DNA from: an uncultured Candidatus Saccharibacteria bacterium | GTDB lineage: Bacteria > Patescibacteriota > Minisyncoccia > GCA-002772825 | NCBI GenBank assembly: GCA_964363045.1 | Contig: CAYIGM010000002.1 | Location: 1 to 52,787 of the forward strand | Length of the DNA: 52,787 nt | Direction: 5' to 3' | Shown: in pieces, positions 2-12,692 of the stretch | Layout: each line of letters starts with the position of its first letter | Numbering within the stretch: position 1 is the first letter of the stretch | Made by a program: the position numbers and the translations under genes | The notes under the pieces: generated by a model | Database searches by the model: none | What the model was told of the DNA's origin: nothing | What the model saw: the letters and a program-made list of their open reading frames with translations, nothing else

Positions 2-115
2 TCTACAGGAAATATGGCCGTGGGAGATATAATACGCTATCGCTTTCAAGCCTCGCCATTTATTATAATGTTTGCCGTATCAGGCATCTTCTTCTGCCTA
101 AAAAATAAAAAATGA
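2..115 (+). CDS. 3' end of an upstream ORF cut by the window edge (hydrophobic C-terminus ...IIMFAVSGIFFCLKNKK)
   Basis: Frame 2 is open from the window edge to TGA at 113-115. That TGA overlaps the ATG at 112-114 in an ATGA junction. No homology recognised. Confidence 0.3.
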   Translation, partial: STGNMAVGDIIRYRFQASPFIIMFAVSGIFFCLKNKK

Positions 116-1770
116 AAAAAGATTTTTTAACCTGGGTATTGATAATATTTATCATCATCATCGGCGTCTATCTTGCCATAAAAGCCACTAATGAAAATAG
201 CTGGGATGGCTGGGGCTTCGGCTCCGCTCAAACGATGATGAGCTTGAAACATTGGGTAAATGACGGCTGGGCAAATCATTATTTCCTGTTTATCCCGGCT
301 GGCTATTCAAAAACAACGCATTACTTTGACGACCCCAATCTGAAACAACACGGGTGGGTTGATGTGACCGGAAACAAAAACGAAAAACAAGCATATTACA
401 CTCATTATCCCTCCGGGTATCTATTTCCTCTTGGCTTTTTGATGGAAATTGGCTTTAAAAACCGATTTTGGTTCAGATTATTTCAAATTTTAATTTCTTT
501 AACCGGATTATTTCTATTGTATAAATTCTTTATTTCAATTACTGATAAAACTATCGCCTTTTCTGCCGTTCTATTTTATATGATATCTATCCCCTTTCTT
601 AACTTTGCCGATTCGCTTGCCAATATGCCCATTGATGATTTCTTGAGATTCCTAATATTGCTTCTCAGTATACTGGCCATCAAAAATATGAACGATGCTA
701 AAAAATACGCCATTTACAATATATGGATATGGATTTCCTATTTTATTCTGTCCGCATCTTCTTATGATTCAACTTTTTTTATTTTTTTCTGGCTGATAGG
801 ACTTGATGTTCTTATCGTAAAACATTTTTTATGGAAAAAATGGCTGATTTTTGCCAGTGCGCCAATATTAGCATTCAGTATTCAGATATTGCAGAATTCA
901 TGGTATCTGGGCTTTCCCGGCATGTTATCGGATTTCTTTGGCGCTTTTAACGCCATTTCCATTTCTTCAAGCCAAAATTCCCTAAAACAGCATTTTTTTC
1001 AAGGAGTATTATTCCCAATAACTGAAGCTTTTGCTTTTTCATTCCGCCTTCGCTACACTTTAATTTCTATTATCGTTATTTTCCTGACTCTTTTTAAATT
1101 GAAAAAAAATAAAAACATAAATAATCTTATTCCCAATGCTTATAAATACGCCATGCTTCTTGGCGGAGCCGGTTTCTTTCAGGCTCTTATACTCACGGAT
1201 AATCATCCCTACAAAGGGCGCTTACTGGGAATATTGACGGCTTTTTTATCGGGGATTTTTATTTTTGCAATTTATCGGCTCATAAAAAACAAATCTACGC
1301 ATAGAATTTTTATTCTAATCTTAATCTTTTTAAGTGTCTTTATATGGTCACTTCAAGCCAAGAGGACATTCGCTTATATAAGACAATGGCCAAATAACAC
1401 TTACAGCAAAGAAAAAATAGATTTCGCCAATGAATTAAGAAGTTCACTCAATTCTTTTATCTCAAAAGATGCCGTAATGTTTACCATGTTCGCTCCGGAA
1501 TCTTACGGCGAATCAATCACGCCGACAATGGCGCGTTATTATGATATGTATTACCACAATATGCCTATTTTATATTTTGATAATCCAAAAGATATTATCA
1601 GAGATTTCACTTATTTAAAACAAATATCAAAATATCCGTTCTCAGCCGTTATAATAACACCAGATAAAGAGGAAGCGGAAAATCTTCTCAATTTACTGAA
1701 ACAAAATTCTGAAAAATTGTCTTCTAAAATAATGAAAATCCAAAACAAAACAATATTAATTATCCCCTAA
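112..1770 (+). CDS. Polytopic membrane protein, paralog A of an unassigned family (candidate GT-C-like glycosyltransferase or polymerase)
   Basis: 552-aa ORF with many hydrophobic segments. Shares the blocks WD(G/D)WGFGSAQTMMS.KHWVNDG, YYTHYP.GYL, ADSLAN.P.DD..RFLIL, SSYDSTFFIF.WL.GLD and KQWPNN with ORF 3346-4974. Confidence 0.75.
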   Translation: MKKDFLTWVLIIFIIIIGVYLAIKATNENSWDGWGFGSAQTMMSLKHWVNDGWANHYFLFIPAGYSKTTHYFDDPNLKQHGWVDVTGNKNEKQAYYTHYPSGYLFPLGFLMEIGFKNRFWFRLFQILISLTGLFLLYKFFISITDKTIAFSAVLFYMISIPFLNFADSLANMPIDDFLRFLILLLSILAIKNMNDAKKYAIYNIWIWISYFILSASSYDSTFFIFFWLIGLDVLIVKHFLWKKWLIFASAPILAFSIQILQNSWYLGFPGMLSDFFGAFNAISISSSQNSLKQHFFQGVLFPITEAFAFSFRLRYTLISIIVIFLTLFKLKKNKNINNLIPNAYKYAMLLGGAGFFQALILTDNHPYKGRLLGILTAFLSGIFIFAIYRLIKNKSTHRIFILILIFLSVFIWSLQAKRTFAYIRQWPNNTYSKEKIDFANELRSSLNSFISKDAVMFTMFAPESYGESITPTMARYYDMYYHNMPILYFDNPKDIIRDFTYLKQISKYPFSAVIITPDKEEAENLLNLLKQNSEKLSSKIMKIQNKTILIIP

Positions 1771-1772
1771 AA

Positions 1773-3374
1773 TTATTTCTCAACTTTATATACAACATTT
1801 TCTCCGTCAGCCGTTTCTTCAACCAATTCATACTTAAGAGACAACTTATCCTTTAAGCCGAGAAAGCATTCTCGAGAACATTTAAAAGCGTAAGCGTAGG
1901 ATGATAAAAAGATATAATTCGGAACTAATTCCGCGTTGCCAGCTCCTGAAAATTTAGAATAGCAATTTGAAGCATCTATATTCAGAAGCCCCTCCGGAAG
2001 ACAAGAACCGATTGACCAGGCATCTGTTTTGAAAGAAACCGTATTAGGAGTAATATTGGTAAAAAAAGTTTTATTTCTATAATTTTCAAGCATTGCCAAT
2101 ATATCCGATAATTTCTTATCATTGCTGAAATTGCCGGCCCATATAAAATATTTCCATCCGATAATAACAATCGCCAACAGCATTATGATTTTAAAAATAA
2201 AATTTTCCAAAAGAAAAATGTAAAAATCTTTATCGTGTTTTATTTTTTCAATCAAACCGTAAAATAAATCACCGACGGCCATTCCCAGAAAAATAACCAG
2301 AAAAGCGTAAAAAAATAAAGGATGATTGCCAATAGTCGGCAAGAAGACAATCTGCCATATAAAAACGGCCAAAAACAGAGGAATTATAAATTTTCTGTTT
2401 TTATAAATACAGCCTCGCCTGAAAATATAAAGAATAAAAGTAAAAATACCGCCTACGGCCAGTGGTATTTTAAACAAATAAAAAGGCCTGATGGCTCCTA
2501 ATAGATAACTGACCATTGGCGCCCGTTCGTTAGAACCCCACAAAACCATATTATGCGCCTGATAGAAATTTAAAAGTTCCTTTCTGGGAGGTATGCTGAA
2601 AAATCTATTTTGCGCCGTAAGCCATATATCCTGCAAAGCGATACTCGGCGTTAAGGCTGACATATTTTGCATTATATGGATAATTGCTCCGACAGAAACA
2701 GAAAGAAAGCAAAAAAAGAATAATCTCATATTTTTTTCAAAAATACCGAATAATAATTCCGAAATCAGCATAAAGCCGGCAAGCATATAATTCGCAAACG
2801 AAGCGATAAAAAATATAAGCGGCACAATAAAATATCTCTTCGGCATATTGCCATATCTAACCCACAAATAACCGAATAATATTGGAAAACTGAGAGAATA
2901 TTGATTATGGTCAACGAGACTTAAAAATCCGCTGAAATTAACAATTAAAAAGATTGAAGAAAAAACGGCGGCAGGCAAAGAGACCGATTCGCTCAAAAAT
3001 AAAAATAAAAAAGCGACTCCGCTTAAAGAAATCAATGAATAAAAAATTCTTGACTGAAAAACATTAAACCCTATTTTTATAAGAAACCCTTGAACAGCCG
3101 ATGGTAAAGACGGATTATGTGTATAAAATATAGGCTGTGAGTTTTTTTCAAAATCAGTTGAATAATCAGGAAGAAAAAAAAGTTTGACAAATCCTTTCAG
3201 CGCAAAATTCCTTCCGGCATTATACTCCAAAATAAAATCCTCTTGAGTGCCACCTGAAGCTAAAGAAATATCTTTATAAGAAAATACGAAATTAAAAATA
3301 TAAAAAATCCCGAAAATCAGAACGAGAATTAAAAACAAATTTTTTTTATTTAATATAGATTTCGCCATAAGCAT
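1773..3374 (-). CDS. Polytopic membrane protein, distant relative of the 112-1770 / 3346-4974 family
   Basis: 533-aa ORF, highly hydrophobic. FYTHNPSLPSAVQGFLIKIGF...SLISLSG parallels YYTHYPSGYLFPLGFLMEIGF...ILISLTG of the paralogs. Its stop is 2 nt from the convergent stop of ORF 112-1770. Confidence 0.7.
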   Translation of the reverse strand: MLMAKSILNKKNLFLILVLIFGIFYIFNFVFSYKDISLASGGTQEDFILEYNAGRNFALKGFVKLFFLPDYSTDFEKNSQPIFYTHNPSLPSAVQGFLIKIGFNVFQSRIFYSLISLSGVAFLFLFLSESVSLPAAVFSSIFLIVNFSGFLSLVDHNQYSLSFPILFGYLWVRYGNMPKRYFIVPLIFFIASFANYMLAGFMLISELLFGIFEKNMRLFFFCFLSVSVGAIIHIMQNMSALTPSIALQDIWLTAQNRFFSIPPRKELLNFYQAHNMVLWGSNERAPMVSYLLGAIRPFYLFKIPLAVGGIFTFILYIFRRGCIYKNRKFIIPLFLAVFIWQIVFLPTIGNHPLFFYAFLVIFLGMAVGDLFYGLIEKIKHDKDFYIFLLENFIFKIIMLLAIVIIGWKYFIWAGNFSNDKKLSDILAMLENYRNKTFFTNITPNTVSFKTDAWSIGSCLPEGLLNIDASNCYSKFSGAGNAELVPNYIFLSSYAYAFKCSRECFLGLKDKLSLKYELVEETADGENVVYKVEK

Positions 3375-4974
3375 TGTCGGTTAAAAATTCTCTTATAATT
3401 TTTACCTCTTGGTCATTGGCAATAATAATCGGCAAAAACGGATACTGGGAATGATTTTTCAATTTTATCAAATCATCCGCCAAATCTTTTTCATTTTTAA
3501 AAGATAAAATCGGCATACCGGAATAATATTCCGAAAATGGATCTGCTTGAGGATAACGATACGAACCGGCTTCATCCATCCTGAATACCACACCATCACG
3601 GCCTTGAGCCGCAGATTTCATATCTTGTCCGAATTTTATAATTTTTTCATCAACGGCATTATTCGGCCATTGTTTAACATACGCATAAGTTCTCTCCGCT
3701 TGCTTAAACCAAAGCAAACTGATTAAAATTAAAAACGCCACTCCACCCGCTTGGAAGCTTAGCTTCCAAGCGGGAAATTTTTTTATATTTTTTAAAATTA
3801 AATAAATTAAAACTGTTGAGGACGCCAAAAGCAAAGAAATAAATGGCGCCGCCTGCCTTGCCTGGTATGGGAAATAACCGGACGAAACGAGAATAAAAGG
3901 ATAAGCAAAACCGGAAACAGCTAAAAGCCCCAGAATTTCATTTTTTGGAAAACAATAAAAATTTTCAACCGCGCGCTTTTTTAAAACAGCAAACGCGGTG
4001 AATAAAATTACGATAATAGGAATAATAAACCGCGCGCGCAAATCTGTCATATATACCCACGGCGAGAAAATCGCTCTTGTGTGCTTCTCTAAAATACCCG
4101 ACCCGGGTCCGGTATTGGCACGCGCCCGAAAGGAACCATAAATATCAAACAAAGCGTCGTGAATCCCCAAATACCATAAATTCTGCAAAAGCTGAACAAA
4201 AAACGCCAAGACGGGCGCCATGGCAAAAATCAACCATCTTTTCCATAAAAATTTTCTTGTCATTATAAGATCAAGACCGACCAGCCAAACAAAGATAAAG
4301 AAAGTAGAATCGTACGAAGAACTGGCAAGGGTAAAATATAAAAACCAGATAAGAATATTATAAAATCTCTTCTTCTTATCATCAGAAACTCTATATACCC
4401 ATATACTTAAAAATAAAATTAAAAATCTAAATAAATCATCTACGGGCTGATTGGCTAAAGAATCCGCTATTCCTAAAAACATCGTCGAACTGGCATAATA
4501 CAAGACCGACAGAAAAGCGATTGTTCGCGTTGAAACAAGCGCAAATGCCACGTACATAAACGACAACCCGGCAAGTGATATTATTATCGCCAAAAATCTA
4601 AACCAGAATCTCGCGGAAACCCCGATTTTCATTAAAATTGCATACGGCAAAAGATAGCCGGCCGGGTAATGAGTATAATAAAGTCTGTTTCCAATAAGCT
4701 CGCCGGTTCGTATGCCATGAGCGTGTTGCCTCAAGTCCGGTTCATCAAAATAACGAACCGCTTTTGAATAACCAGTCGGTATAAAAAGAAACTTACTGTA
4801 AATAAATCCGTCATTCACCCAATGTTTGGAGCTCATCATCGTCTGCGCCGAACCAAAGCCCCAATCATCCCAAACATTTTCAGGTAAAGCCTTAACACCA
4901 AGATAAATAGCCAATATTAAAATAAAAATAATAAATAAAAAATGTGGTTTTAAAATTTGCCAGATTCGTCTCAT
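3346..4974 (-). CDS. Polytopic membrane protein, paralog B of the family
   Basis: 542-aa ORF. More than half of the N-terminal ~280 residues match ORF 112-1770 by eye. Its start overlaps the stop of the upstream GT by 4 nt. Confidence 0.75.
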   Translation of the reverse strand: MRRIWQILKPHFLFIIFILILAIYLGVKALPENVWDDWGFGSAQTMMSSKHWVNDGFIYSKFLFIPTGYSKAVRYFDEPDLRQHAHGIRTGELIGNRLYYTHYPAGYLLPYAILMKIGVSARFWFRFLAIIISLAGLSFMYVAFALVSTRTIAFLSVLYYASSTMFLGIADSLANQPVDDLFRFLILFLSIWVYRVSDDKKKRFYNILIWFLYFTLASSSYDSTFFIFVWLVGLDLIMTRKFLWKRWLIFAMAPVLAFFVQLLQNLWYLGIHDALFDIYGSFRARANTGPGSGILEKHTRAIFSPWVYMTDLRARFIIPIIVILFTAFAVLKKRAVENFYCFPKNEILGLLAVSGFAYPFILVSSGYFPYQARQAAPFISLLLASSTVLIYLILKNIKKFPAWKLSFQAGGVAFLILISLLWFKQAERTYAYVKQWPNNAVDEKIIKFGQDMKSAAQGRDGVVFRMDEAGSYRYPQADPFSEYYSGMPILSFKNEKDLADDLIKLKNHSQYPFLPIIIANDQEVKIIREFLTDNAYGEIYIK

Positions 4975-6053
4975 ATTTTCTTAAATAATTCAATAAATTT
5001 TTCCGCGCAATTTTCCCAAGAAAAATCACCGGCTCTCAAATCAGCCTTATTTACCAGCTCGTCTCTTAATTTTTCATCAAAAACCATCTTAGCCATAGCG
5101 GTAGCAATATCCTCGGGGTTTTTCGGGTCAACTAAAAGCGCGGCCCCGCCGGCCACTTCAGATAAAGAACTCCTGTCGGAAGTGATAACCGGCAAACCGC
5201 AAGCCATCGCCTCAAGCACGGGCATGCCAAAACCTTCAATCAAGCTTGGAAAAACGAGAGCTGACGCATTTTTATAAAGAAAAGAGAGTTGATTGTCACT
5301 GACAAATCCTAAAAAAATCACATCTTCTTTTAAATTATTTTCTTCAATAAAGCGTAATATCTCTCTATAATAAACATTATTGCCATTACCCGCGACAACA
5401 AATTTAAAATCGGATTCATTCTTTTTTTTGAATTCATAAAATCCCTTTATAATATTCAGAAGATTCTTCCTTTCTTTAATCACGCCGACATAAAGAAAAA
5501 AATTTAAAGGAACGGCAATCTTTTCCGACGGCAAAACGCATATTTTACTGAACCCGGGATATATCACCTCTATCTTCTTATGTGGAATATCAAACAATCT
5601 TATAATATCTTTCTTTGTCGCTTCAGAAATAGAGACAATATTATCCTCCCGCCTTAAAGCCAAGCCATTCATCTTATACAATAAAAAATTATTTATTCTG
5701 TTTCTAAAGCCTTCCGGCTTAAAATAAAGATAAGCAAAATCAAGAGCAACCACAATGGATTTCTTAGGGTGAAAAAAAATCGGCATAACAGGGGTATTAA
5801 AAATATAAATATCAGCTTTGGGCGCGAACAAAAGCCCTATCTCCATCCAGAATCTCCCGAAACCCAAAATTTCAATTCTCCAATTTGATGTCGTAAATTC
5901 CGGCATTATTTTGTGATTCTTTTTTAGATAGACTATATACTCATTTTCTTTATCGTTTTCAATAAGATATCTCGTCAAATCAAAAATATAACGGCCTAGT
6001 CCGGCTGGCTTCCCTTCTCCGTATGGGTGCAAGATTATACCTATTTTTGCCAT
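4971..6053 (-). CDS. Glycosyltransferase, GT4 (GT-B fold) family
   Basis: C-terminal EGFGMPVLEAMACGLPVITSD...LVDP motif (E-x7-E type) typical of family 1/4 glycosyltransferases. Confidence 0.85.
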   Translation of the reverse strand: MAKIGIILHPYGEGKPAGLGRYIFDLTRYLIENDKENEYIVYLKKNHKIMPEFTTSNWRIEILGFGRFWMEIGLLFAPKADIYIFNTPVMPIFFHPKKSIVVALDFAYLYFKPEGFRNRINNFLLYKMNGLALRREDNIVSISEATKKDIIRLFDIPHKKIEVIYPGFSKICVLPSEKIAVPLNFFLYVGVIKERKNLLNIIKGFYEFKKKNESDFKFVVAGNGNNVYYREILRFIEENNLKEDVIFLGFVSDNQLSFLYKNASALVFPSLIEGFGMPVLEAMACGLPVITSDRSSLSEVAGGAALLVDPKNPEDIATAMAKMVFDEKLRDELVNKADLRAGDFSWENCAEKFIELFKKI

Positions 6054-6056
6054 ATA

Positions 6057-6659
6057 TTATTTTTTAATTTCCAATTCCCAAATTAATAATTTTACCGGCA
6101 AAAACAAAGAAAGATATTGGTCATAAAATTTTGAATATCTATAAATAAATTTTTTAAAAATTCTCACAAAAAAATTATCTGAATCCTGCGGCCACCCATA
6201 CCAAAATCCCATTTTTTCAAATTTATTGTCAGTATAACCATAATCGGCAAGCGAACTTTTTTTATTTAAAAAATAATCAAGCGAACTTGCCGTGAAAAAA
6301 TGTTTATGTGTGGGGTCTATAAAAGCGTCAATTGAACGAAAATAAGGAACGGCTATAACCGCCCGCGAGCCGTTTCGGCCTATTCGCCAAACTTCATTAA
6401 GAAAATCAACAATATTATCTATGTGTTCCAAAACATTATGCGCGAAAATCAAATCAATGCTATTATCTTCAAAAGGCCATAACACAGAATCTAAATCGCA
6501 TACGATATCAACTGCCGGCATTTTTAGCTTATCAACGCCTACCGCCCCCTTAAGTTTAGAATTACCGCAACCTAAATGCAGGACATCTTTACCAGAAAAA
6601 ATATCTTCTTTGGTAATGCCTTTTTTAGTATAAATTTTCAAGGTGAAACTTTTTTTCAT
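6057..6659 (-). CDS. Class I SAM-dependent methyltransferase
   Basis: VLHLGCGNSKL glycine-rich SAM motif, DLIFAHNVLEHI and GSRAVIAVP blocks (Methyltransf_11/23-like). Confidence 0.75.
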   Translation of the reverse strand: MKKSFTLKIYTKKGITKEDIFSGKDVLHLGCGNSKLKGAVGVDKLKMPAVDIVCDLDSVLWPFEDNSIDLIFAHNVLEHIDNIVDFLNEVWRIGRNGSRAVIAVPYFRSIDAFIDPTHKHFFTASSLDYFLNKKSSLADYGYTDNKFEKMGFWYGWPQDSDNFFVRIFKKFIYRYSKFYDQYLSLFLPVKLLIWELEIKK

Positions 6660-6663
6660 AATC

Positions 6664-7803
6664 TTATAAATCTCGCGTATCCATTTTGATAAATTTTATA
6701 ATGCTACCGGCTCTTTTGTTCCAGGAATAATTTTTTGAATAACTATGCGCTTTTTCCGCTTTATCTTGGGATTCTTTTTTATTTTCCAAGACAAATTTTA
6801 TTTTTTCCGCCAATTTTTCCGCATTGTCCGGTTCCACCAAAAAAGCATTTTCTTCATTCAAAATATCCAAAAAAGACGGCAGTTTGGGGGCGATAATGGG
6901 CCTGCCTGATGCCATATATTCAAAAAGTTTCAAAGGCGAAGTGTAATACTTTGAAATATCGCTTTTAGCGGTGCCTGTCAAAATAAGAATATCCGCTGAT
7001 TTAAGCCATAAAGGAATTTCTTTATACGGCCTCAAGCCGATAAATTTCATATTTTTAAAATTATATTCCTCTTGGCTTGACTCGCCGACTAAATACAAAC
7101 AAATATCGTCTCTCAAAGATTTTCCGGCCTCAATAAGGGTATTGACTCCTTTCCACTTTAAAAAACTGCCGGCATAAACAATAATTTTCTTATCAAGTGG
7201 TAAGCCCAATTTTTTTCTGGCCTCTTGTTTTTCAATATTTATATCAAAATCCTTCAGGCAAACACCGTCCGGAACATATAAAATTTTATTTTTAGAGATA
7301 TTATATTTAACGAAAAGTTCATCTCTGTAATTTTTTGTAACCACAATAATGCCTTTTACTTTTTCAAAAGCTTTTTTATACCAATCAAAATTACCCGGCT
7401 TTATGTGCGTCTCCCAAAAAATGGGCTTTTTCAAAAAAAATGAAAGCGGAACAACCATTTCTCCTCTTGTGTAAACTGAATAATCACCGTCTTTTGCCAA
7501 AAAATAAAAAAACAACGAAACAGAAAAAGTAAAAACCTCAAGAAAAAACACCAACGGAATACCGACAAACATCAAGTCTATAGCGGGTAATTTTTTAATT
7601 TTAAAGACAGGCTCAATATTATAATAAGAAAAAGGATCATCTTTAATAGAATTAAATCTCCACGGCAAAATAAGGGTCAAATCGGCCCCCTCCTTGGCCA
7701 AAGCTTCGCACATCTTCAATATTTGCACCCCGTGAGCTTTCTGCGTAGGAATACGGGCATTTGCCACATAAAAAATCTTAAATTTTTTCTCCAAACCGGC
7801 CAT
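6664..7803 (-). CDS. Glycosyltransferase, GT4 family
   Basis: SPLKLFEYMASGRPIIAP motif. The ORF track starts at TTG 7806, but ATG 7803 overlaps the upstream TGA (TGATG junction), so ATG is preferred. Confidence 0.8.
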   Translation of the reverse strand: MAGLEKKFKIFYVANARIPTQKAHGVQILKMCEALAKEGADLTLILPWRFNSIKDDPFSYYNIEPVFKIKKLPAIDLMFVGIPLVFFLEVFTFSVSLFFYFLAKDGDYSVYTRGEMVVPLSFFLKKPIFWETHIKPGNFDWYKKAFEKVKGIIVVTKNYRDELFVKYNISKNKILYVPDGVCLKDFDINIEKQEARKKLGLPLDKKIIVYAGSFLKWKGVNTLIEAGKSLRDDICLYLVGESSQEEYNFKNMKFIGLRPYKEIPLWLKSADILILTGTAKSDISKYYTSPLKLFEYMASGRPIIAPKLPSFLDILNEENAFLVEPDNAEKLAEKIKFVLENKKESQDKAEKAHSYSKNYSWNKRAGSIIKFIKMDTRDL

Positions 7804-9194
7804 CAATCAATTTTAACCTGATTTGATAAATTTCCCAAACCCATTATAAAATTCCATATTTCCGCAATCGCCAGCGTAAAAAATACTATAAGCAACGGCT
7901 CAATCGGTATTCTAAATCTTGCGTGCCCTTCAAATCCGACAATCAACGAAAAATACGCCATTGTCAAAATTGCAAAAATTCCAACAATAAAATTTCTTCT
8001 TAAATATCCCAACGCCCACAAAATCCCCAACCCCGATTTTAATGCGGTCAAAAAATAACTTACAAAGAAAAAAATTATAAAGAGTATCCCTGATTCAAGA
8101 ACAGATTCCCATAAACCGTTAAAATCAAGAGCGAAAACTTTTTGGGCTATATTGATATTAGGCAATTTTAAATCAAACGCCTCACGCAAAGTAAGCAACA
8201 TTCCATTATTCAAAAAATAGACAGGGGTTGCCGAAATATGAAAAAAAGCATAACTCAAAGGATGCGCTAAAATCTTCTCCTTAGCCAGACGCGCGAGTTC
8301 TGTTGAAGCTGTTATATTATACATTGCGTCTTTGCCGTATTTTTCTTCAATATATTTTAAAATTTCGCTATTTTTCTCATCCCGAGAGACGCCGTCTTTA
8401 TACGCCTGCCATGGCCCGAAATAACTTACATACATATGATATCTTCCCACGGAAGACAAAAATAATTCCCCGAAATGAATCTCATTGCGTATCAGCCAAG
8501 GCGACAAAACAAAAACAAATGCCGCAATCATTAAAACAGACATCATAAATCTTTTCTTAATTTCTTCTTTAAAAAACAATAAGAGAACAAAAATCGGAAT
8601 AATTATAAAAAACTGGGTTACCGGGCGCGTAAGAACAGATAGGCCTAAAAAAGCTCCGACTAAAACAACATTTTTAAAATTAAAATTTATCTCCTTTGAT
8701 ATAATTTTCAAAAACAATAAAACAAACAGGCTAAAAAAGAAAGTAAAAAGAATATCAGCCATTGCCATGCTTGAAAGATAGGCTTTGTAAGGAAGACAGG
8801 CAAAAATTATTCCTGAAAAAACAGCTATATTAAGACGGTGAGTTATCGTCATCGCTATTTCAAAAACAATAATTGCCGTAAGGGCGCTTATTAATATATT
8901 AAGCAATGTGGCTAAAATAAAACCGCCGGTAAGAAGATAGCTGACAGTCAAAAAGAACGGGAAAAGCGGAGTTCGCGCTGAATCAGTAATATAAGGCGCT
9001 GATTGAGACAAAGAAAAAGAATGGCGCTCCGCCAGATTTATGGCAATACGGCCGTATTCCGCCTGATCAGTCCCCTGAACAAGCGGATTAAAAAATTGTT
9101 GTCCGCGCGAAAAATACAGATAAAAAAACATCAATAGATTCGCAATAAGCGCCACTGCAAATAAAATAATTTTTATTTTATTATTTTTTTTCAT
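7803..9194 (-). CDS. GT-C fold membrane glycosyltransferase, ArnT/PMT_2 (GT39/83)-like
   Basis: 463 aa with many TM segments. GTDQAEYGRIAINLAE in the first loop after TM1 resembles the acidic loop of ArnT/PMT-type enzymes. Confidence 0.65.
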   Translation of the reverse strand: MKKNNKIKIILFAVALIANLLMFFYLYFSRGQQFFNPLVQGTDQAEYGRIAINLAERHSFSLSQSAPYITDSARTPLFPFFLTVSYLLTGGFILATLLNILISALTAIIVFEIAMTITHRLNIAVFSGIIFACLPYKAYLSSMAMADILFTFFFSLFVLLFLKIISKEINFNFKNVVLVGAFLGLSVLTRPVTQFFIIIPIFVLLLFFKEEIKKRFMMSVLMIAAFVFVLSPWLIRNEIHFGELFLSSVGRYHMYVSYFGPWQAYKDGVSRDEKNSEILKYIEEKYGKDAMYNITASTELARLAKEKILAHPLSYAFFHISATPVYFLNNGMLLTLREAFDLKLPNINIAQKVFALDFNGLWESVLESGILFIIFFFVSYFLTALKSGLGILWALGYLRRNFIVGIFAILTMAYFSLIVGFEGHARFRIPIEPLLIVFFTLAIAEIWNFIMGLGNLSNQVKID

Positions 9195-9970
9195 ATAATT
9201 TTTTTAATAAAATTATAAAAAACGACGCTAAAACCGAGCTTGCCTTTAAATTCAGCTAAACCGCAATTCTTATGTATAAAATTCCGCTTAAGCTTAAAAA
9301 TATCGTCATTTTGACCCGCCAAACCTTCATTTACTGTCACCGCCCCCAGAAATCCATCCTTTTTCAAAAATTCAATCTGATTTTCATTATAACTCCCTTT
9401 TGGATAAGCAAAAACAAACAGCGACTTAGAAATATTATGATTTATAATTTCTTTAGACATTTTAACTTCCCGGTAAAAATCTTTATCATCCATATCAGCC
9501 ATCTTGCGCGGATGAGTATGCGAATGAAACCCGAAATCAATAAGTCCGGAATTTTCCATCTCTTTAATCTCCCGCCAATTTAAAATATCCAGGCCATTGA
9601 ATTTCCCTCCAATATAAAAAGTGGAAAGAAAAACAGTGGCTGGAAAATTATTTTCTTGAAGAACGGAAAAGGCCTCGGAATAATTATCCTTATACCCGTC
9701 ATCAAAAGTTATCACTACTGTTTTTGACGAAATTTTTTCTTTATTTTTTATCTTTTCTATAATATCCGCGAGTTTTGCGACTTTATAATTCTTATCCTTC
9801 AAATACCTCATTTGACGCGCAAAATTATCCGGCGCGACATTAAACAAAAAATCATTTTTGCCGATTGAATGATACATCAAAATAGAAGCTCCGGGAGGAT
9901 TTATAAAATAAAATAAAATATTCATTAAAGAATAAATCCATTCTTTAATTTTATTATTCCTCAAGAACAT
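9191..9970 (-). CDS. Polysaccharide deacetylase (NodB homology domain, CE4)
   Basis: VVITFDDGYKDNY (TFDDG motif) and HSHTHP metal-binding motif. Confidence 0.8.
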   Translation of the reverse strand: MFLRNNKIKEWIYSLMNILFYFINPPGASILMYHSIGKNDFLFNVAPDNFARQMRYLKDKNYKVAKLADIIEKIKNKEKISSKTVVITFDDGYKDNYSEAFSVLQENNFPATVFLSTFYIGGKFNGLDILNWREIKEMENSGLIDFGFHSHTHPRKMADMDDKDFYREVKMSKEIINHNISKSLFVFAYPKGSYNENQIEFLKKDGFLGAVTVNEGLAGQNDDIFKLKRNFIHKNCGLAEFKGKLGFSVVFYNFIKKII

Positions 9971-11027
9971 AAGCCAACTTGTCTATTAATTTATCCAAAC
10001 CATGATTTTGAACTATAATATCCCTCATTTTTTTCTTTATAACATTCTTTTCTTCAAGAGAAAACTTTATTAATTTCTCAATCTTAGCTGCAAGTTCAAT
10101 GGCATTTCTTTCTTTAAACATCAGCAAATCTCTTAAATGCGCGTCAAATATTCCGCTAAAAGCTTCACTGGAAACAAGGACTAACAAACCGCAAGCCATA
10201 GCCTCAAGGGTCGTCTTGTCAAAACTTCCCGTCTTTGTCAGATTAACGAAAATATCATTATCATTATATATTGCCGGTGTTTGACTATTAGGTATTTTAC
10301 CCAAAAATAAAACATCATCTTCAAGCCCTAATATTCTTATTTTCTCTTTGACTTGATTGAAATAATTCATGTCCTTTTCCGTCGGTCCGCCGACAATATT
10401 AAGATGAAAATTATAATCTCCATTTTTTAGAATACCGAGCGCTTCAATCAACACATTAAGATTTTTAACCGGACTTATCCTGCCTAAATATAAAATCTTA
10501 AATTTATTATCTTCATCTTTTAATTTACCGGCTATCGGATTAAATTTATCTATATCTATCCCTTGCTGCAAAACAACAAGTTTTTTCATATTAAAAGGAA
10601 AAGCTTCTTTAACCGAGGTCACAACTTTATCGGTAAAAAAGACGGCTATCCTCAATTTCAAACTGTCAAGAAAATGCGCATACCACAAGACAACTTTCTT
10701 ACCCCAAAATTTCCATAGCGGACCGGCTAATATGACATATTCCGGATTCATATGGACAAAAACACGATCATAGTCATTTCTTAAAAGCCAAATATGTCTA
10801 TAAAATTTTAAAATATATCCGAGCTTATTCGGTTTCTTATAATCCGGAAATTCCTCCTTTCCAAGAGAATGAACTTCAACATTAATGGGTAAATTATATT
10901 CCCCTTTATAAAGACAGATAACGTGTATAAACTCAAACTTAAGAGTTAATCTCTTTATCCACTCATGATAAACTCCCAAAAGGTCGTCATTTTTATCAAC
11001 TTTCTGGGTTATAAATAAGAGCTTCAT
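9954..11027 (-). CDS. Glycosyltransferase, GT4 family
   Basis: FDKTTLEAMACGLLVLVS motif and GT-B layout. Its start overlaps the Elp3 stop by 4 nt. Confidence 0.8.
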   Translation of the reverse strand: MKLLFITQKVDKNDDLLGVYHEWIKRLTLKFEFIHVICLYKGEYNLPINVEVHSLGKEEFPDYKKPNKLGYILKFYRHIWLLRNDYDRVFVHMNPEYVILAGPLWKFWGKKVVLWYAHFLDSLKLRIAVFFTDKVVTSVKEAFPFNMKKLVVLQQGIDIDKFNPIAGKLKDEDNKFKILYLGRISPVKNLNVLIEALGILKNGDYNFHLNIVGGPTEKDMNYFNQVKEKIRILGLEDDVLFLGKIPNSQTPAIYNDNDIFVNLTKTGSFDKTTLEAMACGLLVLVSSEAFSGIFDAHLRDLLMFKERNAIELAAKIEKLIKFSLEEKNVIKKKMRDIIVQNHGLDKLIDKLAYVLEE

Positions 11028-12655
11028 ATTAATGATTTTACCATATACCCGCCATCAAGCCGATAGCCCAATTTCCGATAATAATCCCTGACACCGACGC
11101 CTGAAATTACGGCCATTTTCTTATATCCGGCCTCTTGGGATATTTTTTCAGCTTCTTTAATGAGGGAACTGCCAAGCCCGCGATGCTGACTCTGTATCCC
11201 CTTTTCTGCCACAGGCACCATTCTGCCGTAAGTATGAAGCTCCCTGACAATAGCGCTTCCGCGGAGCGCGGGGGGTGCTTCTTTTTTGTCAGAAACTCCG
11301 GGCAGAAAAAGCCTTAAAAAGGCAACCAGTTTGTCCGCGCTCCGGTCATTCCAACTTAAAAATACTTCTTTGCCGACAGAAGTCCGGTATTCTTCTTTTT
11401 CAAATTTCAACTTCTCAATTTGAATCTTTCCCTCTCTTATCTCCCTACATCTGATGCATTTGCATTTCCAATTATTTTCTTTTTGGTCTCTTTCAAGAAT
11501 CTGCCTTAAATTGGAAATCTTGCTTCCGGCGACAATATATTCTGACGGAATATCGCGAATGACCCGAATTAATCTGACGAATTTAGGAAGATTCTTTTTC
11601 ACTTCTATCAGAAGCCTCGCCAGCTTCTTATCGTCATAAGTTTTGAATTTTCCTTTCTGCCATAATTTATACAAATTGCTGTTTTTAAGAACAACGCACG
11701 GATAAATCTTCAGCATATCGGGGTAAAACAGCGGATTGGAAAAAAGCTCCTTAAACATCCAGACATCTTTCTTATAAGTGCTGGTGTATAAATTCGGCAT
11801 CATATGATAAACGATTTTAAATCCGGCCAAACGAAGAAGAGCTGTCGCTTTGGAGACCTCGCCTATTCCCGCTCCGCGCGCGTTGGCCGATAAAACATCT
11901 TCATCAAGATTCTGCACGCCTATCTCCACCTTCGTCACTCCAAACTTTCTCATCCTCTCTATTTCCGCTAAATTTATATAATCCGGTCTTGTTTCAACAG
12001 ACAATCCTATAATCCTGCATTTTGCGCTTTCATTGATTTTTTGCAATCCATTCAACGGTTTGGTATTTTTCTTGATTCCTCTTTTTTTCTTATAATTATT
12101 GCAAGCCCTGAAAATCTCCGATATGAATTCTTCCTGATATTTATGCGGATAATAACTCCAGGTTCCGCCTATTATAATAATTTCAATCTTATCTATCGGA
12201 TGGCCGTTTAATTCTAACGCCCGAAGCCTCGCAATAATCTGCTTATACGGGTCAAAATTATTCCTCAAAGCGCGACTGGCGGCAGGCTCTTTGGAAAGAT
12301 AACTCTTGGGCATCTTTTTCTCTGTCGGGCAATAAATACATCTACCCGGACAAGAAAAAGGTTTGGTCAGAAGCGAGACCGAGACTATCCCCGAATTGCT
12401 TTTTGTCTTTATTTTTCGCAATAACAATTCCGCTTCAAGAGACCTTTCCTCTTCCCCTTTTTCAACCATATCTTTATATAAAGCCAAAACCTCCGCGTTA
12501 ACCGGCAATGGCTTTGTTTTAAAGATATGCCCAGCGGGCCTGAAACTGATTTTCTTTTTTATCTCTAATATACGCTCATAAAGCGCATTATTTTTGGAAA
12601 TGACCCTCTTGAGCCTCTCTAAATCTGCTTCTGTTTTAAGATGTTTAAAAAGCAT
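11024..12655 (-). CDS. elp3: Elp3-type tRNA U34 carboxymethyl-modification enzyme (radical SAM + GNAT acetyltransferase)
   Basis: FSCPGRCIYCP radical-SAM CxxxCxxC cluster. The central domain is Elp3-like (VETRPDYI, VTKVEIGVQ). C-terminal GNAT motif QHRGLGSSLIKEAEKI. The 543-aa length fits Elp3. Confidence 0.85.
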   Translation of the reverse strand: MLFKHLKTEADLERLKRVISKNNALYERILEIKKKISFRPAGHIFKTKPLPVNAEVLALYKDMVEKGEEERSLEAELLLRKIKTKSNSGIVSVSLLTKPFSCPGRCIYCPTEKKMPKSYLSKEPAASRALRNNFDPYKQIIARLRALELNGHPIDKIEIIIIGGTWSYYPHKYQEEFISEIFRACNNYKKKRGIKKNTKPLNGLQKINESAKCRIIGLSVETRPDYINLAEIERMRKFGVTKVEIGVQNLDEDVLSANARGAGIGEVSKATALLRLAGFKIVYHMMPNLYTSTYKKDVWMFKELFSNPLFYPDMLKIYPCVVLKNSNLYKLWQKGKFKTYDDKKLARLLIEVKKNLPKFVRLIRVIRDIPSEYIVAGSKISNLRQILERDQKENNWKCKCIRCREIREGKIQIEKLKFEKEEYRTSVGKEVFLSWNDRSADKLVAFLRLFLPGVSDKKEAPPALRGSAIVRELHTYGRMVPVAEKGIQSQHRGLGSSLIKEAEKISQEAGYKKMAVISGVGVRDYYRKLGYRLDGGYMVKSLI

Positions 12656-12662
12656 AATAAAT

Positions 12663-12692
12663 TTGGAAAAATTCCCGCAATTTAGCTATACT
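12663..12692 (+). promoter_or_regulatory. Candidate sigma-70 promoter for the Trm9-like gene (leaderless)
   Basis: TTGGAA (12663-12668), 18-nt spacer, TATACT (12687-12692). The ATG at 12700 is 7 nt after the -10 box and has no SD. Confidence 0.4.

Follow-up and report, generated by a model that had tools for sequence, protein, structure and literature searches.

Integral-membrane glycosyltransferases (GTs) of the GT-C superfamily decide what a cell displays on its outside. In this analysis, we examine three neighbouring open reading frames (ORFs) at the start of a 52,787-nt stretch of DNA (the window) from an uncultured Candidatus Saccharibacteria bacterium (assembly GCA_964363045.1, contig CAYIGM010000002.1). 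They encode P0001 (112-1770, + strand, 552 aa), P0002 (1773-3374, - strand, 533 aa, or 531 aa with a start at 3368) and P0003 (3346-4974, - strand, 542 aa); the window begins at the contig edge and all three frames are open over these coordinates. With a probability of about three in four, we read them as GT-C_A glycosyltransferases that would use a lipid-linked donor and a surface acceptor, and that belong to a rare family and its sister subfamily, both outside the Pfam and NCBIfam models.

Known GT-C systems and how the locus compares

Enzymes of the GT-C_A class are integral membrane proteins with 7-13 transmembrane (TM) helices. A conserved module of seven comes first, with two helices in its first luminal loop and a catalytic acid at or in the first of these, and is followed by a variable module, where most contacts to the acceptor are made (PMC13503287; PMC11127046). 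In ALG9 and ALG12 (GT22; PDB 9s6s, 9s6u, 9s6t), the variable part consists of exactly four TM helices and is followed by a luminal C-terminal domain (PMC13503287). The same plan of a 7-TM conserved module, a two-helix first outer loop (EL1), a 4-TM variable module and a non-cytoplasmic C-terminal domain recurs in P0003, and a polyprenyl-monophosphate sugar donor is expected for both groups. Structural comparison with Foldseek places ALG9 and ALG12 at E 2.3e-5 to 2.4e-3 with a template-modelling score (TM-score) of ~0.44-0.51 and an rmsd of ~8 Å, the lowest of all matches. Sequence similarity to them is nevertheless not detectable, the eukaryotic enzymes have Dol-PP-oligosaccharide as their substrate, and W-D/S-x-W and YYTHYP in EL1 are, in this comparison, motifs unique to the family.

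STT3, PglB and AglB (GT66) share the GT-C_A core and give the best Foldseek E-values (2.2e-7 to 9e-4). Whereas these enzymes have 13 TM helices, a WWDYG motif, a large C-terminal domain and the Pfam domain PF02516, the window proteins have 11 TM helices and none of these features: a Pfam scan found no PF02516 match in P0001, P0002 or P0003, and neither a WWDYG-type motif nor WWD occurs in their sequences. The ArnT/PMT/PMT_2 type (GT83, GT39; PF13231, PF02366) is linked to the family through the few members that PMT_2 matches. However, the window proteins have no such match, and they differ from that type in EL1 sequence and in the C-terminal domain.

Beyond single enzymes, three-component systems provide a functional comparison, in which a polyprenyl-phosphate sugar, made by a small GT2, is carried across the membrane by a flippase and transferred outside by a GT-C enzyme (PMC11127046; reviewed in PMC8035078). 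Those compared here are GtrA/GtrB/GtrC, ArnC/ArnEF/ArnT, CsbB/GtcA/YfhO and the GT136 ribofuranosylation system (PMC11127046). The logic proposed here is the same: a GT2 resembling ArnC, AglJ or DPMS is the commonest neighbour of the family across phyla and is present in the island described here, and a GtrA-family gene lies elsewhere in the genome. Unlike them, the locus carries a different, unnamed GT-C family, has no adjacent flippase gene and holds several GT-C paralogues per island; in many phyla, the GT2 and the GT-C gene are moreover embedded in a sugar-tailoring cassette of radical-SAM (rSAM) and thiamine diphosphate (ThDP) enzymes, which the classical systems do not have.

Three homologous membrane proteins

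A first-pass annotation, made from the letters of the window, had called P0001 and P0003 clear paralogues, and the two proteins indeed align with 43% identity over 514 residues (E 6e-134); a profile search of the own genome recovers P0001 at E 1.9e-206. The shared blocks listed there are all present, namely WD.WGFGSAQTMMS.KHWVNDG, YYTHYP.GYL, ADSLAN.P.DD..RFLIL.LSI, SSYDSTFFIF.WL.GLD, FLWK.WLIFA.AP.LAF and MPIL.F, except that the block given as KQWPNN is in fact (K/R)QWPNN. A detail that it left unmentioned is the strand of the genes, with P0001 on the + strand and the other two on the - strand.

The third protein, P0002, was said to keep the central YTH signature, and it does: BLASTP aligns it with the other two, at E 2e-7 and 2e-5, over only ~120 residues containing FYTHNPS...GFLIKIGF...SLISLSG. 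Profile comparison extends this homology considerably. We built one alignment of 42 relatives of P0003 and P0001 (A1) and another of 12 relatives of P0002 (A2), and hhalign joins the two with a probability of 97.1% and E 7.5e-11 over 366 columns, covering the membrane domain from end to end. Columns kept in both alignments (merged, P0003 numbering) are Y100-T101-H102-x-P104, G118, R126, S133, D171, Q264-N265 and D277, lying almost entirely between EL1 and the start of the fourth outer loop (EL4). The C-terminal domains of A1 and A2, by comparison, are unrelated, that of P0002 being Cys-rich with four Cys that are invariant in A2, and P0002 carries neither the WD.W block nor D222. Thus, the earlier description of three homologous proteins holds as far as homology goes, but P0002 is, as judged from the profiles, a remote homologue of the membrane domain of P0001 and P0003 and forms a separate sister subfamily with a different C-terminal domain.

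Fold and family assignment

The AlphaFold2 (AF2) model of P0003, computed from alignment A1, has a predicted local distance difference test score (pLDDT) of 94.3 and a predicted TM-score (pTM) of 0.93. When this model is compared with the Protein Data Bank (PDB) by Foldseek, ranks 1-28 are occupied by GT-C enzymes only, at probabilities of 0.94-1.00: STT3 (from several oligosaccharyltransferase (OST) complexes), PglB, AglB, ALG9, ALG12, AftA, AftB, AftD, Pmt4 and PimE. The best match is STT3 at E 2.2e-7, and 21 matches reach E <= 1e-3. EmbB, PIG-U (7wld_U) and Pmt1 stand lower in the list, still with high probability. Transporters and G-protein-coupled receptors (GPCRs) enter at rank 29 with probabilities <= 0.21 and a TM-score of ~0.1, and on these probabilities a transporter reading was rejected. 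The suggestion of GT-C-like enzymes in the first-pass annotation, which had named assignment to a non-glycosyltransferase family such as transporters as the outcome that would speak against it, therefore stands.

At the sequence level, PMT_2 (PF13231) matches five of the 42 A1 members, with a best E of 3.7e-6, as well as a few further distant relatives. Such a match always begins at the YTHYP position and spans ~150 residues, through about TM6. Against the Pfam gathering threshold of 26.1 bits, one of the 42 members reaches 27.7 bits, and the other four remain below it. On the sequences analysed, these weak PMT_2 matches are the only link to a named GT-C family. The PMT_2 subfamily encoded next door in the window, aligned as A3, retrieves Pmt1 from the PDB at E 0.043 only, over TM3-7. 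PMT loop 1 (DE.HFG ... HPPL) and the ArnT loop-1 motif presumably resemble W-D-D-W-G-F-G ... YTHYP, a likeness that we take as a lead only.

Taken together, P0001 and P0003 represent a separate, unnamed family inside the GT-C superfamily, which is not PMT_2, GT39 or GT83. GT-C_A enzymes in three-component-like systems are a familiar kind; this family has no name of its own and, once characterised, would probably become a CAZy family in its own right.

Topology and conserved residues

Helices of the P0003 model, together with hydropathy, give 11 TM helices in an N-in/C-out orientation, with TM1 at residues 9-27, TM2-7 within 122-269 and TM8-11 within 314-434. The positive-inside rule fits every loop: the short inner loops carry K/R clusters (MRR, STR, YRVSDDKKKR, RKFLWKR and NIKKFPAWK), and the short outer loops have none or one such residue. 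EL1 of P0003 (4612..4893, - strand; residues 28-121) contains two modelled helices, at residues 39-55 and 71-84, and is predicted to lie outside. By alignment to P0003 and its model, the corresponding loop of P0001 (187..465, + strand; about residues 26-118) contains WDGWGFGSAQTMMS, D52, D73 and YYTHYPSGY. A large soluble C-terminal domain had been expected, but the domain turned out to be small, about 108-125 aa; in P0003 (3349..3672, - strand; residues 435-542), it is modelled as an alpha/beta domain of alternating strands and helices and is predicted to be extracytoplasmic. The modelled architecture of P0003 hence matches a GT-C_A-like plan, with seven conserved and four variable TM helices, an outward two-helix EL1 and a small outward C-terminal domain.

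This topology places the strongly conserved polar residues of A1 all on the outer face. In EL1, they comprise W35, W38, D55, D77 and YYTHYP (Y100-T101-H102-x-P104), alongside the less constant D36; D55, at the end of the first EL1 helix, is D or E in 41/42 members, and D77 is found in 42/42. Further along are D171 and D179 in EL2, D222 in EL3, Q261, Q264, N265 and D277 at the outer end of TM7 and in EL4, and Y370 and R373 in EL5. The 11-TM arrangement thereby puts the WD.W loop outside, as the first-pass annotation had anticipated, together with YYTHYP, D171, D222, Q264-N265, D277 and the C-terminal domain. Identity between P0001 and P0003 is distributed unevenly over these regions, at 59% in EL1 and in TM2-7, 23% in EL4, 21% in TM8-11 and 35% in the C-terminal domain.

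Distribution and relatives of the family

A profile search among 1.84 billion representative sequences found 435 clusters (50% identity) at E <= 1e-3, of which 114 lie at <= 1e-30. In GTDB species genomes, the family occurs in 4/4 genomes of the own genus and order and in 11/401 sampled from the class; none of 400 other genomes sampled across the phylum has it. A profile across genomes of the Candidate Phyla Radiation (CPR), as the first-pass annotation had proposed, thus does find the family there, yet the family is not CPR-specific and extends over about ten phyla. Named contigs derive from Patescibacteria, Nitrospirota (many), Thermodesulfobacteriota, 'Deltaproteobacteria', Geobacteraceae, Planctomycetia, Omnitrophota, Elusimicrobia, Riflebacteria, Deferrisomatales and Polyangiales. 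P0003 (paralogue clade 1) and P0001 (paralogue clade 2) fall into different well-supported clades of a 117-member tree, each with orthologues from sister genomes (P0085, P0076, P0081 and P0087 for P0001), which indicates that their duplication is older than the genus.

Several relatives carry additional domains at the C-terminus, such as two NPCBM domains (P0169), an F5/8-type-C domain (P0250, and weakly P0163), Laminin_G_3 (P0231) or long TPR arrays (P0171, P0173). These carbohydrate-binding and TPR fusions provide independent support for an outward, glycan-directed C-terminus, and the four invariant Cys of the P0002 C-terminal domain are counted on the same side. In loci from Desulfobacterota, Planctomycetia and Omnitrophota, a TPR or TM+TPR gene adjoins the family gene (L018 8350-10020; L019, L064, L054, L066), and both delta-proteobacterial-type loci that were inspected have a TPR protein gene directly upstream or nearby. 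No paper was found on this family, on the radical-SAM cassette or on a system combining radical-SAM and GT-C enzymes.

A conserved cassette around the family gene

To describe gene context, ORFs within ~6 kb of family genes were clustered for 49 loci, 47 of which contain a family ORF. A small GT2 is present in 22 of these 47, a radical-SAM gene in 20 (17 of them rSAM/SPASM) and both in 16; another GT-C or TM+TPR protein occurs in 25, and class I methyltransferases in nine, mostly from CPR. At least 12 loci, from Nitrospirota, Geobacteraceae, Pseudomonadota and Deferrisomatales, share a cassette of fixed order with a single family gene at its end: a GmhA-like SIS isomerase, rSAM/SPASM-A, the alpha and then the beta subunit of a pyruvate dehydrogenase (PDH)-type E1, a GT2 of ~250 aa, rSAM/SPASM-B and the family gene, after which a gene for a 286-aa rSAM protein often lies. 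In NCBIfam, the cassette GT2 aligns best with AglJ, ArnC and dolichyl-phosphate hexose transferase, in each case short of the family cut-off. In a Nitrospirae metagenome-assembled genome (MAG), E1 beta (transketolase-like) and the GT2 are fused in one 580-aa ORF (L075 3074-4813), an arrangement in favour of the ThDP enzyme being functionally tied to the lipid-carrier glycosyltransferase.

The own genome encodes counterparts of this cassette on two other contigs. On contig C17 lie rSAM-B (10040-11194), with 68-70% identity to the cassette gene of Nitrospirota and Geobacter, rSAM-A (8770-9897; 43%), the GT2 (7960-8757; 35%) and an E1 beta-like ORF (11300-12664; 52%), while contig C29 holds the 286-aa rSAM gene (110-988; 65%). 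The identity of rSAM-B across phyla is strikingly high. In a contiguous assembly from the same genus, the cassette orthologues are found 2-8 kb from family genes, within one island of ~35 kb.

Gene neighbourhood thus suggests that the family is functionally linked to a lipid-carrier GT2 and to sugar-tailoring enzymes. More tentatively, and with the odds rather against so specific a proposal, the family may serve as the dedicated outer-face transferase of this widespread cassette, installing a so far undescribed branched or chain-extended, probably heptose-derived sugar on the cell surface from polyprenyl-phosphate; in CPR, it would then have multiplied into three to five paralogues that bring this sugar, or variants of it, to different acceptors.

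The glycan island of the window and its genome

Neighbouring genes in the window bear out the surroundings claimed in the first-pass annotation, with three GT4 genes, a GT39/83-like PMT_2 gene and a polysaccharide deacetylase, and add a methyltransferase. By Pfam, these are, all on the - strand, a GT4 (4971-6053), a class I methyltransferase (6057-6659), a GT4 (6664-7806), a PMT_2 GT-C (7803-9194), the deacetylase (9191-9970) and a GT4 (9954-11027). Read in the direction of transcription, the co-directional run is GT4, deacetylase, PMT_2, GT4, methyltransferase, GT4, P0003 and P0002, so that P0003 is last but one. Junctions among the upstream genes (4971..11027) overlap or are 3-5 nt apart, and the P0003 ATG overlaps the stop codon of the upstream GT4 gene (4971-4974).

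On the other side, the 3' end of a PMT_2-type GT-C gene (2..115, + strand) precedes P0001, its TGA stop at 113-115 overlapping the P0001 ATG at 112-114 (ATGA coupling). The end of contig C29 (L026 2516-2564) overlaps the window start with a few mismatches, probably reflecting strain variation, which places the contig break within this PMT_2-type gene; C29 adjoins the window and carries the rest of the gene as an open-ended 424-aa ORF matching PMT_2. Further genes on C29 encode a second PMT_2 protein, a 244-aa GT2, a GT9-like protein and a radical-SAM protein. This GT2 has weak similarity to GtrB (5ekp), DPMS (5mlz), ArnC and AglJ, all below the family cut-offs. A simple join in which C17 abuts C29 was considered and is unsupported: in the relative, the 286-aa rSAM gene is followed directly by rSAM-B, whereas C17 has the E1 beta-like ORF before rSAM-B. 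Overall, the own genome (587,509 bp, 98.9% complete) encodes three proteins of the kind studied here and four PMT_2 proteins, three of them in or next to the island, as well as a GtrA-family protein on another contig and Wzx.

The same-genus relative, on a contiguous 214-kb contig, gathers ~35 kb of glycan genes in one island. Its order is GT4, deacetylase, PMT_2, GT4 and GT4; two family genes, a methyltransferase, another family gene and a P0002-type gene; on the opposite strand, a family gene and PMT_2; then PMT_2, GT2, GT9, rSAM, rSAM/SPASM-B, rSAM/SPASM-A, GT2, GT4 and Wzx, followed by further genes, PMT_2, further genes and a B12-rSAM. The upstream gene order is nearly the same as in the window, but the methyltransferase stands among the family genes; a 457-aa gene overlaps the P0001 orthologue, as at the window start. 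In CPR loci (L028, L029, L038, L045, L047, L057 and window 6057-6659), between one and four genes for class I SAM methyltransferases (Methyltransf_11/23/25) repeatedly sit beside the family genes, an arrangement largely missing from non-CPR loci, and the presence of these genes beside CPR family genes suggests a methylated sugar or glycan.

Two features of the gene arrangement deserve separate mention. P0001 and P0002 converge from the + and - strands with 2 nt between their stop codons (1768-1775), so that the terminator of either transcript must sit within the other gene. Inside the P0003 coding region, at 3746-3774 on the + strand, there is a perfect 13-bp palindrome, CCCGCTTGGAAGC-TTA-GCTTCCAAGCGGG, the sole copy in the window; with AAATTTTTTT after it on the + strand, it resembles a terminator when read antisense. 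The residues encoded there are KKFPAWKLSFQAG, in a poorly conserved inner loop of P0003 between TM10 and TM11.

Proposed mechanism and alternatives

Fold, consistency of the topology, paralogy, family distribution and gene context were computed here, and from them we infer the activity, the lipid-linked donor and the acceptor, with the mechanism patterned on GT-C_A enzymes of solved structure. In the cytoplasm, a GT2 would load a sugar onto polyprenyl phosphate, possibly before or after tailoring by the radical-SAM and ThDP enzymes; GT2 neighbours resembling ArnC, AglJ or DPMS, on C29 and in the loci surveyed, are the context for such a donor. The lipid-linked sugar would be flipped across the membrane, with GtrA or Wzx as flippase candidates, and bound on the outer face by the conserved N-terminal module (TM1-7 and EL1). 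Candidate site residues are YTHxP, R126, D171, Q264-N265 and D277, plus an acid at or just before the first EL1 helix; R126 and R373 may bind phosphate, D171, D277 and the EL1 acid may act as base or metal ligands, and YTHxP would lie at the mouth of TM2. From there, the sugar would pass to an acceptor, which the variable module (TM8-11 and the small outer C-terminal domain) would hold in place. Most likely, this acceptor is a glycan of the cell surface that the neighbouring GT4, deacetylase and methyltransferase genes serve to build. That the copies have different acceptors, as the first-pass annotation had suggested, or different linkages, is plausible because they differ mainly in the variable module (between P0001 and P0003, 21% identity, versus 59% in the conserved module), and their separate orthologue clades agree with it, although this point is reached by inference only.

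Several results weigh against the glycosyltransferase reading. Pfam and NCBIfam scans of the three proteins give no match even at E 10, and searches of the PDB by sequence and by profile give no usable match, the sole one, to a Dsb protein at E 0.49, having been treated as noise. Foldseek query TM-scores are moderate, mostly 0.4-0.53 and lower for PimE. The adjacent PMT_2 subfamily aligns with A1 at an hhalign probability of 14% and with A2 not at all, for which reason a transfer of ArnT/PMT catalytic residue numbering via A3 was abandoned. The loop after TM1 had been described as having invariant acidic and aromatic residues, which is true of W35 and W38 (42/42) but not of D36, present in only 30/42 A1 members and replaced by S in ten and G in two; at least one D/E occurs within residues 31-37 in 42/42, though not in one column. 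Because the Asp expected after TM1 is not fixed, the catalytic base cannot be assigned. The AF2 model of P0002, from a 12-sequence alignment, is poor (pLDDT 54) and unreliable, so that the assignment of this protein is based entirely on profile homology. Lastly, every family sequence comes from a MAG or single-amplified genome (SAG) of an uncultured organism.

Other functions can be envisaged for proteins of this fold. The family could act like STT3, PglB and AglB, as oligosaccharyltransferases that take an oligosaccharide already assembled in diphosphate-linked form and pass it en bloc to a protein, for instance a pilin, an S-layer protein or one of the giant surface proteins of the window. 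The top Foldseek matches are of this kind, but ALG9/12, Aft and PMT enzymes fall in the same TM-score range and the ranking therefore does not discriminate. Likewise, a Wzx-type flippase in the genome and three GT4 genes able to build an oligosaccharide would suit an OST, yet an initiating phosphoglycosyl transferase is not seen in the island, and the GT2 that recurs beside the family is small and ArnC/AglJ-like, as is typical where the donor is a monophosphate-linked sugar. TPR domains are fused to some relatives, and such domains bind protein acceptors in TMTC-type GT-C enzymes. Set against the missing STT3 domain and WWDYG-type motif, a TM-helix count of 11 instead of 13 and the shortness of the C-terminal domain (~110 aa), these points leave an OST function unlikely. 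A role as surface-polysaccharide polymerase or ligase, either Wzy/WaaL-like or processive in the manner of Emb and Aft, instead of adding a single decorating sugar, appears a little more doubtful again. It would suit P0029, a delta-proteobacterial member within an exopolysaccharide (EPS) locus of Wza, Wzz, tyrosine-kinase and Bac_transf genes with no obvious Wzy; arabinosyltransferases of the Aft and Emb types turn up in the Foldseek search of P0003, and several copies per genome could act in succession. The three window proteins, however, have no match to Wzy_C or O-antigen-ligase Pfam models (PF04932, PF13425), no WaaL, RodA or Wzy structure is among the significant Foldseek matches of P0003, and in the cassette each family gene is partnered by one GT2 and by sugar-tailoring enzymes, and not by genes for chain length or export.

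Least probable, and only barely worth entertaining, is that one or more of the proteins, especially P0002, has a non-catalytic GT-C fold serving as a scaffold, a substrate-binding subunit, a lipid-carrier handler (compare PIG-U in the glycosylphosphatidylinositol (GPI) transamidase) or a transporter. PIG-U itself is among the structural matches, the acid after TM1 varies, and P0002 has lost the WD.W block and D222. Against this, the outward polar residues are strictly conserved over about ten phyla, as expected of an active site, even the P0002 subfamily keeps YTHxP, the arginine, QN and the equivalents of D171 and D277, and transporter folds are at noise level in the Foldseek search. All three alternatives are less well supported than the reading of these proteins as GT-C sugar transferases.

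Implications

Lacking a database model, the family is annotated as 'hypothetical' everywhere, and a profile for it would improve the annotation of MAGs from CPR, Nitrospirota and Desulfobacterota. To our knowledge, each new GT-C family so far has meant new donor-acceptor chemistry, GT136 in 2024 being an example. For the present family, the cassette is the place to look for the donor, and the family is the likely final transferase of the cassette pathway. Three family copies and four PMT_2-type GT-C genes are maintained in a genome of 0.59 Mb, and the relative gathers ~35 kb of glycan genes in one island; in a bacterium that is ultra-small and probably attached to a host, this is a sign of a surface structure that matters.

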